The translations under genes and the position numbers were made by a program. A model generated the notes under the pieces. The model was given only the letters and a program-made list of their open reading frames with translations. It was not told where the DNA came from and ran no database searches. From a virus (Duplodnaviria; Heunggongvirae; Uroviricota; Caudoviricetes), in IMG/VR virus record IMGVR_UViG_2529292977_000015: a stretch of 5,548 bases of DNA, one strand, 5' to 3'. This document shows, one piece after another, positions 1 to 4,777 of this stretch. Each line of letters begins with the position of its first letter. Within the stretch, counting starts at the first letter, position 1.

Positions 1-176
1 GCTCAGGGCGATAAAACGCCAGGTGAATTTATTCAGGTTGTGCAAGTCCCGCCCTTGCGGGTGTGTGGTATGATTTCTCATAGCTACCTCGATACTGTTG
101 CTATCGTTGGTGGTCAGAGGCTGCGAAAGGACGGCAATCCTTTTCAGCCTCGTTTGCATTGAGTGATAAACACTCA

Positions 177-257
177 ACTGGATTCCAGTATAATCACTAA
201 GTGGAATCCACTTCAAGCGTTTTGTTTTGGTCTTTTTCGTGTATACTGGATTCCAGT
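177..257. promoter_or_regulatory. Operator array: three palindromes ACTGGA-T-TCCAGT (177-189), AGTGGA-A-TCCACT (200-212), ACTGGA-T-TCCAGT (245-257), overlapping -10-like hexamers
   Basis: Read directly: 6-1-6 inverted repeats sharing the core TGGAWTCCA, centres at 183, 206 and 251. TATAAT at 189-194 and TATACT at 242-247 on the plus strand. On the minus strand TTGAAG, an 18-nt spacer and TATACT (plus coordinates 192-187) form a divergent promoter candidate with the middle palindrome in its spacer. Confidence 0.45.
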
Positions 258-277
258 AATCACAAAGGGAACCAGAA

Positions 278-457
278 ATGGAAAGAGACCATATCAATAA
301 CAAATCACAGAAATTACAGGCTCGCGCCCCGCATGAAGTTGTTGAGGCTATGGAGCAAGTAAAAGAAACAGGCGAGAGCACTGCGCAATTTATCGTTACA
401 GCCATGCGAGGCGAGATCAAACGCCGCCAGCGCCGCAAGGCCAAAGAAGCGGAATAG
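278..457 (+). CDS. Small ribbon-helix-helix (CopG/Arc/Mnt-like) DNA-binding protein, 59 aa; absent from the supplied ORF track
   Basis: ATG 278 with AAGGGA 7 nt upstream, stop TAG 455-457. Translation MERDHINNKSQKLQARAPHEVVEAMEQVKETGESTAQFIVTAMRGEIKRRQRRKAKEAE shows a strand-helix-helix pattern and a basic tail. It lies directly downstream of the operator array and is followed by an intrinsic terminator. Confidence 0.5.
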   Translation: MERDHINNKSQKLQARAPHEVVEAMEQVKETGESTAQFIVTAMRGEIKRRQRRKAKEAE

Positions 458-545
458 TCCACCAGCAAGCCAGCACACTGATCACATTGCCCACCAGCCA
501 ACAAATCGCTATGATGTTTGGGCTTATGTTTAGTGTTTTCCCATT

Positions 546-577
546 GGCGACCTCTGATCCGGGTCGCCTTTGTTTTG
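546..577 (+). terminator. Rho-independent terminator for the plus-strand RHH transcript
   Basis: 7-bp stem GGCGACC (546-552) pairing GGTCGCC (562-568), 9-nt loop, then TTTGTTTTG. It abuts the stop codon of the convergent Bro-N gene at 578-580. Confidence 0.55.
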
Positions 578-1159
578 TCACTGAATGCGGTTGCCAAAGT
601 AAAACTCAGGCTGATATTCACGTATCAGCCTTTTTTCTTCTTCCTCCAGCTCACGCTTTTTGCGCTTACATGCCTGTAGCTCCCTCCCCTTCTGACTGGC
701 ACTTAACTGATATTGCTCTTTACGGCGAGAAAAGTCCTGTAATGCGCCCCACGGGATACCATAAGCCCCCGTTTTTCTGATTCCTGGTATCACATTCCTG
801 AATACCCAGTTACTGAAACGATGGGCGAACGTGCCAGGAGTAACAGCTTTCCGACTTCTGGCGATCAGCTTGTAAAAACCGGATTCAGAAATGAGGCTAT
901 GATTTGGATTTCCTCGAATACCGTAGCTTAAAGCGACGGTTTTCTTTTCATCCGCATCTAGTGCTTTTAGAGCATCGCGTGAGTTACTTATTTCCAGAGC
1001 AACACAAACATCCTTTGCAACAAACCACGGATCGCCGTTCAGATACACCACGCGAACGTTCACACTATCAAAGCGCAGAACGACCAGATCACGAAAATCA
1101 CAGAATTTTTTTACATGACGTGCGTCACCCTTGCCCGTCACGGCAATATTTTTATTCAT
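578..1159 (-). CDS. Bro-N domain protein (phage antirepressor-like), 193 aa
   Basis: N-terminal motif FRDLVVLRFDSVNVRVVYLNGDPWFVAKDVCVALEISNSRDALKALDADEKK matches the Bro-N signature. C-terminal tail is charged (KRKKRELEEEEKRLIRE). ATG 1159 with GAGGT upstream. Confidence 0.8.
   Translation of the reverse strand: MNKNIAVTGKGDARHVKKFCDFRDLVVLRFDSVNVRVVYLNGDPWFVAKDVCVALEISNSRDALKALDADEKKTVALSYGIRGNPNHSLISESGFYKLIARSRKAVTPGTFAHRFSNWVFRNVIPGIRKTGAYGIPWGALQDFSRRKEQYQLSASQKGRELQACKRKKRELEEEEKRLIREYQPEFYFGNRIQ
608..643 (+). terminator. Second canonical hairpin plus U-tract (terminator-like) lying inside the Bro-N coding 3' end
   Basis: Perfect 9-bp stem AGGCTGATA (608-616) pairing TATCAGCCT (623-631), 6-nt loop, followed by TTTTTCTTCTTCC. 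Confidence 0.45.
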
Positions 1160-1173
1160 TTCTTTTTTACCTC

Positions 1174-1205
1174 ACATACAAAAAACCCCGCATTGCACGC
1201 GGGGT
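1174..1205 (-). terminator. Rho-independent terminator downstream of the AlpA-like gene
   Basis: On the minus strand, stem CCCCGC/GCGGGG (plus 1186-1191 with 1199-1204), 7-nt loop, then TTTTTTGTATGTG. It sits 13 nt after the alpA stop. Confidence 0.6.
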
Positions 1206-1218
1206 ATGAAAGATATTA

Positions 1219-1422
1219 TTAGTGGGGATTGGCCTGTTCTCGTTGTTTATCTAACCATGCTTCTACATCTCTACGGTGCCAGGTATGTCGTCGTCCAATT
1301 CTGAACGGCTGAGGAAAACCATTATTCTCATCTTTCCAGAAATTGATGAATGCACTCATTGCTCCATATCGCAAGATTTTCATTACGTCTTTAGTAAATA
1401 AAATATCTTCATTGGTATTCAT
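1219..1422 (-). CDS. alpA: AlpA-family (excisionase/MerR-like HTH) DNA-binding regulator, 67 aa from the second ATG
   Basis: MNTNEDILFTKDVMKILRYGAMSAFINFWKDENNGFPQPFRIGRRHTWHRRDVEAWLDKQ fits the Phage_AlpA pattern (hydrophobic HTH, FPxP, conserved W, DVEAWL). ATG at 1422 is preceded by GAGGAGG with an 8-nt spacer. The ATG at 1443 listed in the ORF track lacks an SD and overlaps the int stop. Confidence 0.8.
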   Translation of the reverse strand: MNTNEDILFTKDVMKILRYGAMSAFINFWKDENNGFPQPFRIGRRHTWHRRDVEAWLDKQREQANPH

Positions 1423-1435
1423 TTGCTGAACCTCC

Positions 1436-2674
1436 TCAACCATTTACTACTCTTAAACCTTTCATACCACCGGATCTATTAATTACCCCTTTTCTCGCAT
1501 CATCAAAAAAATCACCGACCCATTGCATCATGATCTTACGCTGTTCTAGATAAATAGTTCTATTATAAATATCTCTTATTTTATCACCACTTTTATGCGC
1601 CAATGCAGCCTCGATTACATCGGGGTTAAATCCCTCCTCATTTAAAAGCGTACTCCACATTGAACGAAAACCATGTAACGTTACAATCCCTTTGAACTTA
1701 CTGGCAGCAATTGGGGTCTTGATAGTATTCCTCCCCATAGGCGCATCTTTTGTTCTGGAGGAAAAAAACACATAACGCCCTCTTTTTATTTCCTGCATTG
1801 TTCTGAGGATACTAATAGCCTGTGATGACAAGGGAACAACATGTTCACGATGGCATTTCATTTTATGCGCGGGGATAATCCACAAGCCAGAATCAAAATC
1901 AATCTCTGACCACTCTGCTTTAATCGCCTCACCTGGCCTGACCATTGTCAATATCTGGAATAAAAGTGCATTATGAGCTATTTGATAGGTATGAGGCACA
2001 CTATCCCACCAGCTCAGAAATTCAGGCAATCTTTCAACAGGTAGTGCTGCTAATGATTTATTTTTCTTTCCTGTGAATGCAGTCTTTATCTTAAGTAATG
2101 GATTTGCTTTCAATGCTCCACAATTTACAGCATAATTCATAATTTCATTTAATCTTGATATTAATTTTTTTTGCAACGCATTCTTATCGGATACGGCATC
2201 CAGAGCATTAATAGCTACTGGTGCTGTAATTTTTTCTATACTGTACTTACCAAAGAAAGGAACAAGATATTTGTATACTTCATATTCGATATTATACAGC
2301 GTAGGTTTCCGCAATTCAGATCCCTTTTTAAAAGCGAACCATGCATTAGCAACAGCTTCAAATGTCTGTAGATTTTTTAGTGACATCTCAATTTTACGAT
2401 TTTTCTTCTCCGTCACTGGATCAACTCCACGTGCAATCATTCGCCGAAGTTCATCACGTACTTCCCGTGCTTCCGCGAGTGAGAATTCAGGAAAACGTCC
2501 TATCGTGTATGTCTGCCGTTTCTTCGTTATCGGATGGCTATAACGGAAACGCCACACTTTCCCACCGGCTTTACTCACATTCAGCAATAAACCGAACCCA
2601 TCATAAACGGCATAGTCCTTTTCACGTGGTTTCATCCCCTTAACTTCAGTCACGGTTAATGGCTTTACCGACAT
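1436..2674 (-). CDS. int: Tyrosine-type site-specific integrase, P4/CP4-57-like, 412 aa
   Basis: N-terminal arm-binding-type region (GKVWRFRY...FPEFSLAEAREVRDELRRMIARGVDP). C-terminal catalytic region HGFRSMWST... and AHKSGDKIRDIYNRTIYLEQRKIMMQWVGDF closely resembles the P4 Int C-terminus. GAGGG SD 6 nt before ATG 2674. Confidence 0.93.
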   Translation of the reverse strand: MSVKPLTVTEVKGMKPREKDYAVYDGFGLLLNVSKAGGKVWRFRYSHPITKKRQTYTIGRFPEFSLAEAREVRDELRRMIARGVDPVTEKKNRKIEMSLKNLQTFEAVANAWFAFKKGSELRKPTLYNIEYEVYKYLVPFFGKYSIEKITAPVAINALDAVSDKNALQKKLISRLNEIMNYAVNCGALKANPLLKIKTAFTGKKNKSLAALPVERLPEFLSWWDSVPHTYQIAHNALLFQILTMVRPGEAIKAEWSEIDFDSGLWIIPAHKMKCHREHVVPLSSQAISILRTMQEIKRGRYVFFSSRTKDAPMGRNTIKTPIAASKFKGIVTLHGFRSMWSTLLNEEGFNPDVIEAALAHKSGDKIRDIYNRTIYLEQRKIMMQWVGDFFDDARKGVINRSGGMKGLRVVNG

Positions 2675-2835
2675 CTATCGCCCTCATTTTTTAGTCCGTC
2701 ATGTAGTCCATTCAAGCCAATAACAAGCGATAAACTAACTCATTATCAAGCAAAGAGAGGAAACTCATAAAATCACAACTCATTGAAAAGACTATGAAAC
2801 GACACCAGAACATACAAACAGGTAAGAAATGTACC

Positions 2836-3843
2836 CTACATCCAAAATGACGCAATCCGGGAGTTTCGTGGCGTTCCGGTGATACTGCCGTCCGCCGCCG
2901 CCCGTTCACCTTCACGAAGCCAGATCCCCTGGTTATTCAGTTCGCGTTTCTGCTCAGGGGCAATCAGCCCGCGACAATGCGGACACATCAGACGGGCAGC
3001 CTGACCGGCAGCCACAAAATCCGGGTTATTCCGGTATCCGGTCATGTTATCCATCACCGGCTGAAAATATTCCCCGCAGTGCGGACACGGCCAGTACCAC
3101 CGGCGGCGGTCTCCCCGGTTATACAGTGACAGGATCCCCGTTGTTGGCGGTGCCTCATGTGCGCCACCACAACGCCATTTGGTATCGGTGATATCCCGCC
3201 CCGGTGAACTCTCGACCAGGGTCATCCCCGAGGACATAAAGGTGGTGGTACGCTTTGAGGCCAGCGTGAAGGCATCCCCTTCCCCGTCCACATTTTCAGG
3301 GAAACGGTCATAATCCGTCAGCGCCACACGACGGTAATCCGAAGAGGAAAAGACGGTGATCGACGGCCAGCCAATCTTCAGGAAGGAGCCGTCAAGAAAC
3401 ATTTTATCGTGGACGTTGTTGTCATTACGGGAAGGACTGAGGCGCTTGCTGACCTCCGGACTGTGGCGAAACGTCCTGGAAAGACGCGTTCTGGAATGCT
3501 CACGCGCCTTCGTCTCAGTCATCTGCACCACCAGCATATCCGCCGGATCACAGATGATGCCGTACACAATCCAGCCATCAATCAGCCCTTCGGTTTTCCC
3601 GGTTCGCGCAGGTCCCACAAACACCACCGCGTCATATTCACGGGCTGATAATGTATTAATGGGGTCAATCATATAGGGCGTCAGCGATGACTCCCACGGA
3701 CCGGAAGTATTGGCTCCCCGTGGAACCCGCATATAACGCCTGATGGCTTCCGCTACTGGTAACCGGCTGGGTGGGCGAAACAGCGAGGCCACTTCGCGCC
3801 AGATATCGGATGCGCGGCTATGGCTCTCGTTCACCTGATTCAC
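2836..3843 (-). CDS. Terminase large subunit (lambda GpA family), N-terminal fragment of ~335 aa, truncated and probably a pseudogene
   Basis: Walker A VFVGPARTGKTEG and Cys motifs WPCPHCGEYFQ and MCPHCRG align with lambda gpA. Full-length gpA is about 640 aa. Similarity runs to ...RIASFW, then M and TAG at 2836-2838. GTG start at 3843 overlaps the Nu1 stop. Confidence 0.85.
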   Translation of the reverse strand: MNQVNESHSRASDIWREVASLFRPPSRLPVAEAIRRYMRVPRGANTSGPWESSLTPYMIDPINTLSAREYDAVVFVGPARTGKTEGLIDGWIVYGIICDPADMLVVQMTETKAREHSRTRLSRTFRHSPEVSKRLSPSRNDNNVHDKMFLDGSFLKIGWPSITVFSSSDYRRVALTDYDRFPENVDGEGDAFTLASKRTTTFMSSGMTLVESSPGRDITDTKWRCGGAHEAPPTTGILSLYNRGDRRRWYWPCPHCGEYFQPVMDNMTGYRNNPDFVAAGQAARLMCPHCRGLIAPEQKRELNNQGIWLREGERAAADGSITGTPRNSRIASFWM

Positions 3844-4405: not shown

Positions 4406-4530
4406 ACCACAATCATCATCTTTTTAATACTAACAGCATTAAAAACAACAAGTTACCATCATGATGATGATGACGATAAAATCACAAAAATGCGCCTTTT
4501 TCCGCGCCCGCCCGCCCCGTGTTCAGGCCC
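4406..4530. other. Putative cos region: GC-rich cosN-like core (~4497-4534) and cosB-like inverted ATCATCATC/GATGATGAT repeats (4412-4420, 4463-4471)
   Basis: Minus-strand reading ACGGGGCGGGCGGGCGCGGAAAAAGG resembles the lambda cosN neighbourhood (ACGGGGCGGCGACCTCGCGGGTTTTCG). It lies about 200 nt upstream of the Nu1 start, as in lambda, between the lysis genes and the terminase. Confidence 0.4.
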
Positions 4531-4777
4531 ACCCCACCAGGAGGACCCGCAAAAATGATAATGGTTATCATTTGCAACAAAATCCAGTTTCTTCCACCAT
4601 CGCACCGGACTGGCGACTATGAGGGGACAACACCGCGCTCCGTTAACGCGGTAAACCCCGGTGTGTATCGTTTTTGATTATCCCCGCACACTCGCGCAGA
4701 GGATTCTCCCGGTCGGGCTGCGGTCTCTGTTAATGCAGGAATACGGCGACAATACCGCGCATGAATAATAAGGTCGC

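Follow-up and report, generated by a model that had tools for sequence, protein, structure and literature searches.

A small ribbon-helix-helix gene and three promoter-borne boxes form a candidate repressor module in a satellite embedded in a Stx1 prophage

The DNA analysed here, 5,548 nucleotides of the IMG/VR record IMGVR_UViG_2529292977_000015 (in its whole length, the window), covers the right end of a ~10.4-kb satellite lodged in a Stx1a prophage. Between an icd-like gene and a gene for a Bro-N domain protein it holds a control region with three boxes, followed by a gene of 59 codons for a predicted ribbon-helix-helix (RHH) protein (Table 1). We propose that this protein is probably an autoregulated maintenance ('immunity') repressor of the leftward operon of icd-like and primase genes in what is, by its gene organisation, a helper-embedded phage-inducible chromosomal island (PICI). 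The gene is absent from the list of open reading frames (ORFs) supplied with the sequence. The 60-residue default of the ORF lister just exceeds the 59 residues of this ORF, which plausibly explains its absence.

The encoded protein, MERDHINNKSQKLQARAPHEVVEAMEQVKETGESTAQFIVTAMRGEIKRRQRRKAKEAE, begins with ATG, and an in-frame TAA at 257-259 leaves no possibility of a longer upstream start. It matches the NCBIfam profile NF041551 (YlcI_YnfO_N) with an E-value of 2.4e-20 and 72.3 bits (cut-off 30), residues 9-50 aligning with positions 1-42 of 42, which places it in this family, and it matches phrog_949 over its full length (E 4e-27). The RefSeq entry for the ORF, WP_000439003.1, is named 'YlcI/YnfO family protein' (DUF3950) and has no function assigned. 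Our literature searches found no functional study of YlcI, YnfO, DUF3950 or master repressors of Escherichia coli PICIs. Searching 5.8 billion proteins identified 108 homologous clusters of 52-75 residues (nearly all 57-65) in Enterobacterales, among them Escherichia, Salmonella, Klebsiella, Serratia, Yersinia, Xenorhabdus, Pectobacterium and Pantoea. When HMMER was run exhaustively against 1.84 billion cluster representatives, only 93 reached E <= 1e-3, which marks the family as small and compact.

To compare related loci, we scanned one genome per species, which gave 46 loci in related satellites of Enterobacterales, and an exact protein look-up of three more homologues added four. The reading frame is uninterrupted in all 47 distinct coding sequences from related loci. 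Across these 47 sequences synonymous sites are near saturation (proportion of synonymous differences, pS, 0.70), the nonsynonymous proportion (pN) is 0.21 and pN/pS is 0.31, falling to 0.18 in helix 2. The Shine-Dalgarno sequences of the relatives are GGAG or GAGG, spaced from the ATG as in the window. The 59-codon frame is thus a real, conserved gene under purifying selection. The frame is short and the window holds 60 ORFs of at least 30 residues, so a chance ORF or an annotation artefact that is not expressed might be suspected. This is scarcely credible given hidden Markov model (HMM) matches of 1e-20 to 1e-27, a conserved Shine-Dalgarno sequence, a confident fold prediction, and length and frame that are conserved across genera at saturated synonymous divergence. 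An earlier sequence-only reading had described a complete ORF, a ribosome-binding site 7 nt before its ATG, an operator array directly upstream and an intrinsic terminator behind it, and all four are borne out by the comparisons and by the features in Table 1.

Table 1. Features of the window discussed in the text, with positions counted from its first nucleotide.
Feature	Position	Strand	Basis or remarks
icd-like gene, 5' part	1-81	-	start codon 81-79; first gene of the leftward operon
Structured 5' leader of the leftward transcript	82-180	-	three hairpins, the last holding the icd Shine-Dalgarno sequence
Swappable 'immunity cassette'	115-368		part of the leftward leader, three boxes, both promoters and RHH codons 1-31; replaced as a block in L049
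Box O1, CTGGATTCCAG	178-188		overlaps the last 2 nt of the leftward -10 and its start region
Predicted promoter P_L	187-216	-	-35 TTGAAG (216-211), 18-nt spacer, -10 TATACT (192-187); sigma-70-like consensus match and conservation
Box O2, GTGGAATCCAC	201-211		inside the leftward promoter spacer, abutting the -35
Predicted P_R -10, TATACT	242-247	+	RHH gene's own promoter; T-rich upstream stretch, weak -35
Box O3, CTGGATTCCAG	246-256		begins within the conserved GTATACTG (rightward -10) and covers the start region
Shine-Dalgarno sequence AAGGGA	265-270	+	7-nt spacer accagaa to the ATG
Gene for 59-residue RHH protein, YlcI/YnfO family	278-457	+	ORF listing, HMM matches, RefSeq
Terminator-like hairpin GGCGACC...GGTCGCC with T-run	546-577 (hairpin 546-568)	+	89 nt past the stop codon; predicted end of the RHH transcript
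Second terminator-like hairpin with T6	608-641 (hairpin 608-631)	+	within the 3' end of the convergent Bro-N gene
Bro-N domain protein, PHROG 'anti-repressor'	578-1159	-	convergent with the RHH gene; in some relatives only
Strong intrinsic terminator-like site	1185-1205	-	between the AlpA-like and Bro-N genes; 9-bp stem, 6 GC pairs, T5
AlpA-like helix-turn-helix regulator/excisionase	1219-1422	-	
Tyrosine integrase of the satellite	1436-2674	-	
Satellite/gpA junction, att core ~TTGGATG(G/T)AGGG	2830-2841	-	common to both junctions; W-M codons of gpA near codon 335
gpA large terminase, N-terminal 335 codons	2836-3843	-	

RHH proteins are obligate intertwined dimers with a two-stranded antiparallel sheet, and the motif is defined by a strand in which polar, DNA-facing residues alternate with hydrophobic, core-facing ones and by a G-x-S/T/N turn before helix B. 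An AlphaFold2 monomer model built on a 45-sequence alignment has a mean predicted local distance difference test score (pLDDT) of 87.3. It predicts an extended segment at residues ~10-18, helix A at 19-28 and helix B at 35-58, the strand-helix-helix order of the RHH superfamily (MetJ/Arc/CopG). DSSP assigns no strand in this model, as is to be expected of a monomer that lacks the partner strand, since two chains are needed to build the RHH sheet. The alternation is present, with K12, Q14 and R16 polar and outward and L13, A15 and A17 hydrophobic and inward, as is the turn, G32-E33-S34. E33 is invariant in the family; R16 is likewise invariant, as is the basic EIKRRQR with which helix B closes. 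In a weak hhalign alignment with an approximate Arc sequence (probability 21%), K12/Q14/R16 pair with the DNA-contact residues Q9/N11/R13 of Arc, and RAPHEV pairs with RWPREV. Weak Pfam matches are enriched in RHH families (PSK_trans_fac in 11 of 45 family members, plus CB_ParB_C and HicB). The RHH fold with a basic tail that had been read from the letters is therefore supported by the predicted structure and the sequence pattern, not by a family match; of the checks named with it, structure prediction gave an RHH-like model and the Pfam search gave RHH matches below threshold only.

The motif TGGAWTCCA occurs three times in the window (179-187, 202-210 and 247-255), against 0.09 expected, and none of 200 shuffles reached three. 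No further exact copy is found in the 29.5 kb of surrounding genome. In general form the boxes are 11 bp long and read (G/C)TG-N5-CA(C/G). A 16-nt inverted repeat in the control region, ACTGGATTCCAGTATA / TATACTGGATTCCAGT, is therefore made up of two mirror-image '-10 plus box' units, one from each of two back-to-back promoters. P_L is predicted to drive the icd-like/primase operon via a structured leader of ~100 nt, and P_R to lead to the 59-residue gene. As expected of sites for a repressor, these repeated candidate sites lie on promoter elements: O1 and O2 on the -10 and spacer of P_L, and O3 on the -10 of P_R.

The same arrangement is found in the related loci, which we grouped into 17 specificity classes by protein residues 11-15. 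Automatic finding of 9-mer repeats in the upstream regions was noisy, and boxes were instead located by anchoring on TCAA, the -35 TTGA of the leftward promoter. Relative to the ATG, box 1 lies at -99 to -112, box 2 at -77 in nearly all relatives, and box 3 at -32. Over the 17 classes the scaffold AaGTG.....CAC.TCAA ... T-rich ... GTATAcTG....cCAc is invariant and the N5 core alone varies; both the TTGA adjoining O2 and the GTATAcTG are conserved in every class. In nearly all loci ~200 nt separate the small gene from a divergently oriented one whose leader is conserved. This second gene is icd-like where tblastn detected an icd-like gene, and a primase gene follows further along in many loci. 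An integrase gene, often adjoining a tRNA gene, is convergent downstream of the small gene. The combination of a divergent icd-like/primase operon and a convergent integrase is conserved in most of the 46 loci. In one group of loci (L010, L013, L015-L019 and L024, of the KKLEA class) the longest ORF begins MD.DMATK. The constant box positions, -77 and -32, are in accord with the ATG further on (MATKAVN...), and the first ATG is therefore probably not the true start in these loci.

The boxes change together with the predicted DNA-reading strand. Strands QK(L/V/I)Q(A/T) at residues 11-15 go with TGGAnTCCA, QKMSA with CTGGCACCCA, (K/R)KLEA with GTGTCAGCCAC, QQLNA with GTGAATCGCAC, QSLKS and QALKA with GTGTGGCCCAC, QSVTA with GTGTAAGACAC, QLFTV and QMTTV with GTGTrTTTCAC, QKTSV and KRFDV with GTGTCGGACAC, QQKTA with GTGCAAGTCAC, and KKMQA with GTGTGCTCCAC. 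Classes with equal residues at 12 and 14 mostly have equal boxes: K/Q gives TGGAnTCCA, K/E gives GTGTCAGCCAC, S or A with K gives GTGTGGCCCAC, and L or M with T gives GTGTrTTTCAC. The box is unchanged when only residue 11 or the inward-facing residues 13 and 15 differ and is usually changed with residues 12 and 14, as would follow from a strand with 12, 14 and 16 turned towards the DNA. Boxes 2 and 3 mismatch at a mean of 1.2 of 9 positions inside a locus and at 3.4 between classes. In a class-level permutation with one representative per class, none of 100,000 permutations reached the observed value. L052, a locus added once the rule was in place, has the strand QKMSA and, as predicted, TGGCACCCA boxes. 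In the QSVTA, QLFTV, QMTTV and QQKTA classes box 1 is inverted with respect to the other two, and in QQLNA, KKLEA and QKMSA it is direct. Residues 12 and 14 were also considered as a two-residue recognition code accounting for the whole pattern, and this was rejected, since QKMSA and QKTSV do not fit and KKMQA matches a half-site only. A separate idea, heteroimmunity of co-resident satellites, drew a suggestive but not significant result: in Xenorhabdus innexi (L005, L010, L012 and L043) and four other multi-satellite genomes no class is repeated within a genome among 13 loci, a result that 18% of label shuffles equal.

Further support for a link between gene and boxes is provided by a natural exchange. 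Another satellite, L049, occupies the same gpA site. Between ~369 and 3500 it matches the window with 100% identity, a span that includes the C-terminal 28 RHH codons, Bro-N, AlpA, integrase, att and the terminase fragment. At 101-350 identity is only 50-72%; the icd-like coding region beyond is 90-96% identical in nucleotides. The boxes of L049 are GTGTGGCCCAC, GTGTGGTCCAC and CTGTCCCCCAC, and its strand is QALKA. All 14 amino-acid differences between the two RHH proteins fall in residues 1-31, and a recombination breakpoint therefore lies within the gene, separating the half that reads the DNA from helix B. The window's 251-bp cassette is present in 98 of 5426 complete E. coli genomes, exactly once in each; by contrast, window positions 1-1500 match up to 6 places per genome. 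At least one other satellite backbone (L053), which lies beside roxA/pepT, has a RepA-type helicase and lacks Bro-N, carries the cassette with 100% identity, and a tRNA-Pro element (L054) carries it with 95.6% identity.

The surroundings of the cassette identify the host element and its helper. The window is 100% identical to chromosomes of E. coli O157:H7 and other Shiga toxin-producing E. coli (STEC); among deposited phage genomes nothing matches it. Its 29.5-kb surroundings in NZ_CP066759 are a Stx1a prophage. The helper late genes lie on the minus strand of the window in the order Q, stx1AB, lysis genes, a DUF1441 protein in the small-terminase position, and the N-terminal part of gpA. An insert of ~10.4 kb (L001:6420-16840) splits gpA, whose C-terminal part and the portal gene resume beyond it. 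Excision of the satellite would restore the helper's terminase gene. The leftward operon runs from the icd-like gene through small ORFs, DUF4222, a D5-type primase and SSB to a ClpP-protease/major-capsid fusion. The RHH gene is the only satellite gene of opposite strand; all others are co-oriented with the helper late operon. The insertion inside the late gene gpA and the set of integrase, AlpA-like, Bro-N, RHH, icd-like, primase, SSB and protease-capsid fusion genes are those of a helper-embedded PICI. Such elements are organised in integration, Bro, replication and late zones, and one clade of their integrases targets prophage late genes (Tommasini, Mageeney, Williams 2023; PMC10111431). In the supplement to that study '-DUF3950' appears in the gene profiles of a few elements, with no function or comment (PMC10111431).

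Several side observations concern this region. The helper head protease/capsid gene (L001:1461-2674) is split by an insertion of IS1203 (IS3 family), and the satellite's own ClpP-protease/major-capsid fusion (L001:7326-9215; 629 residues) is intact. Between the Rz and DUF1441 genes, at ~4495-4590, the window resembles the cos-proximal sequence of DLP12 (ggacccGcaaaaatgataatGGttatcat vs ggacccAcaaaatgataatAAttatcat), the latter adjoined by K-12 ylcI, and the cos of the Stx1 prophage probably lies here. Four related satellites (L002, L006, L011 and L039) carry the Rfam int-alpA RNA motif (RF02996) above its gathering score, ~2.5-3.1 kb downstream of the small gene; it is not found in the window.

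Based on the conserved gene, the RHH fold prediction, the box architecture, the box/strand co-variation and the cassette swap, we infer DNA binding, repression, the sign of regulation, promoter activity and a route of derepression as follows. The dimer would insert its N-terminal beta-ribbon into the major groove of the three boxes, with residues 12 and 14 setting specificity. Occupancy of O1 and O2 would block P_L and silence the operon of icd-like, primase, SSB and capsid genes, and occupancy of O3, on the gene's own -10 and start region, would give negative autoregulation. Satellite replication and late genes would in this way be kept silent by the repressor. The EIKRRQR tail may contact the invariant flanks or the backbone, or may mediate cooperativity, which is speculation. 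The sequence-only reading had called the protein the most likely repressor of the switch, and the comparison strongly supports this through boxes on predicted promoters, co-variation and the swap.

Derepression may come about by transcription itself: helper- or AlpA-driven transcription would read through, antisense to the repressor gene and across the operators. Such an override is suggested because the RHH gene alone opposes the helper late operon and int/alpA, and because no minus-strand terminator-like site was found between Bro-N and icd. Transcripts of int/alpA would stop at the strong terminator-like site before Bro-N unless antiterminated, and a Q-modified helper polymerase would be expected to ignore it. 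Passive helper-driven transcription of embedded satellites has been argued by Tommasini et al. (PMC10111431). An anti-repressor protein could be an alternative or a contributor, and Bro-N matches PHROG 'anti-repressor' families. As an obligatory partner or anti-repressor Bro-N was rejected, since only ~6 of 46 loci have it and other backbones with the identical cassette lack it.

Several points weigh against this interpretation. No Pfam RHH family is matched above threshold (PSK_trans_fac scores 15.6 bits vs 28.3, and CB_ParB_C and HicB are also below), Foldseek against the PDB gave no significant match, and phmmer and profile searches of PDB sequences gave only chance matches. The promoters are consensus matches backed by conservation only, and the -35 of P_R is poor. 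The specificity code is imperfect: QKMSA and QKTSV both have K12/S14, and their boxes differ. In L049 the DNA left of the icd-like gene differs too, and the Icd protein is only 88% identical, so that the RHH protein is not the sole changing protein. The swapped cassette also holds the leader hairpins, and a layer of RNA immunity may coexist with the repressor. Finally, no more than ~150 bp separate the boxes from the strand codons, and part of the co-variation is linkage and co-inheritance. Linkage does not explain the concerted change of three separate boxes with unchanged spacers and scaffold, and it is on this change and on the breakpoint inside the gene that the argument from co-variation rests.

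The same protein and boxes could also serve another purpose, either Arc- or Cro-like timing of the early leftward operon after induction or CopG-like copy control of the primase operon. We consider this unlikely. The gene forms its own divergent, terminator-bounded and apparently autoregulated unit and is the sole gene opposing helper- or AlpA-driven transcription, which is the layout of maintenance repressors (Mnt, CI, Stl). An immunity function also fits the large number of orthogonal specificity classes and the fact that a given cassette occurs once per genome.

A different explanation is that the boxes are read by another factor, or that immunity is mainly due to a c4/CI/SymR-like RNA from the icd leader, with the protein aiding excision, the origin or packaging, a part that its remote lambdoid relatives beside cos might also play. 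RNA immunity operates upstream of icd-like genes in P4 and P1 and has been proposed for helper-embedded PICIs (PMC10111431). The icd leader is itself structured, with a fold z-score of -3.2, and is conserved in ~40 loci; 11 of 16 pairs show compensatory changes, a single-stranded UCUAACCACAA is invariant, and no Rfam family matches the leader. On the antisense strand of one related leader (L031) there is a sub-threshold SymR match (35 bits, gathering score 61); the middle hairpin of the window is different, and the match has no counterpart there. The leader hairpins lie inside the swapped cassette, K-12 YlcI stands beside the DLP12 cos with no such boxes, and Icd-like PHROGs are labelled 'transcriptional repressor', all of which would suit this explanation. 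The Icd-like protein (L001:13878-14081, window -122 to 81) matches these PHROGs (phrog_6196, 1.6e-47) and has no Pfam domain; the label is possibly a legacy of P4 cI and P1 c4 once being annotated as proteins.

On the other side, no C4, isrK or SymR match was found in the window even with lax filters, and none reached the gathering score in 17 related loci. In window positions 1-300 C4 gave nothing at E <= 10 and isrK only 10.9 bits vs 50. The boxes sit on promoter elements, and in many classes they are direct asymmetric DNA repeats, unable to pair as RNA. The RHH gene is the only adjacent gene that is present in every locus and varies in step with the boxes, and the breakpoint lies inside it. 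Control chiefly by RNA or by another factor is accordingly improbable in our judgement. On the plus strand, a perfect extended -10 (TGgTATGAT, 66-74) lies within the first codons of the icd-like gene, opposite to it. Such an element could start an RNA of ~70 nt antisense to the icd Shine-Dalgarno sequence and AUG and ending at the hairpin at 113-147, possibly as a SymR/c4-like second layer of control.

The sequence-only reading had also allowed for an antitoxin-like regulator, and RHH proteins that neutralise a toxin protein as type II antitoxins would be the case in point. This alternative did not hold up and is very improbable here. The gene is monocistronic, with terminator-like hairpins after its stop codon and a convergent next gene, and has no co-operonic toxin partner; neighbouring genes differ between loci. 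The protein comprises a DNA-binding domain with a short basic tail, ends 7 residues past the conserved basic stretch and is without a toxin-binding extension.

An RHH switch repressor is a known kind of regulator and not a new mechanism. The closest working analogues of the repressor proposed here are the RHH repressors Mnt and Arc of P22 immI. The 59-residue protein has no Pfam Arc or Mnt match, and its invariant basic C-terminal tail is absent from Arc. Mnt/Arc act in a phage on one 21/17-bp operator and control ant, whereas the satellite gene faces three 11-bp boxes and an icd-like-led operon with replication and capsid genes. The plasmid RHH repressors omega (pSM19035) and CopG (pMV158) work in a comparable way, and omega-type repressors likewise use their heptads in direct or inverted orientation. 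Their sites are 7-bp heptads or a 13-bp pseudo-palindrome, in contrast to the 11-bp GTG-N5-CAC boxes, which are spaced 23 and 45 bp centre to centre, and the gene of the window is divergent from its target operon, not inside it.

In its proposed role the protein resembles Stl/Rpr of the Staphylococcus aureus pathogenicity islands (SaPIs), a satellite repressor divergent from the replication/packaging operon that keeps the island silent until a helper is active (PMC6092414). Stl is a large helix-turn-helix protein of unrelated fold and size, and the element in the window also carries AlpA, a known activator of Gram-negative PICIs. The P4 CI and P1 c4 RNAs occupy the same place, a control region before the icd-like first gene of a replication operon; in the window this place is taken by a protein-operator pair. 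YlcI (DLP12) and YnfO (Qin) of K-12 belong to the same NCBIfam family, and K-12 YlcI reads strand-helix-helix. It is very distant (hhalign probability 5%) and lies next to cos in a lambdoid prophage, with neither the three boxes nor a divergent icd-like operon, and given this difference in context it was rejected as a model for the 59-residue protein.

Gram-positive PICIs are held silent by the master repressor Stl/Rpr, and the global repressor of Gram-negative PICIs has been called 'unclear' (PMC6092414). We found no discussion of the 59-residue gene in the literature searched on these elements. The gene described here bears on the question whether Gram-negative PICIs have a master repressor. 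More tentatively, and with somewhat less than an even chance of being right, the RHH gene and its three boxes may constitute a portable, recombining immunity module and, for a large group of Gram-negative and helper-embedded PICIs, the master repressor system that has long been sought, with at least 17 mutually orthogonal immunity types and with the GTG-N5-CAC scaffold and residues 11-15 as a readable RHH-DNA recognition code. If the proposal is true, the DUF3950 family would gain a function, and the control logic of these satellites, including one inside the Stx1 prophage of E. coli O157:H7, would become directly testable. It would also provide natural orthogonal repressor/operator pairs (59 residues, 11 bp) for the study and engineering of RHH specificity.

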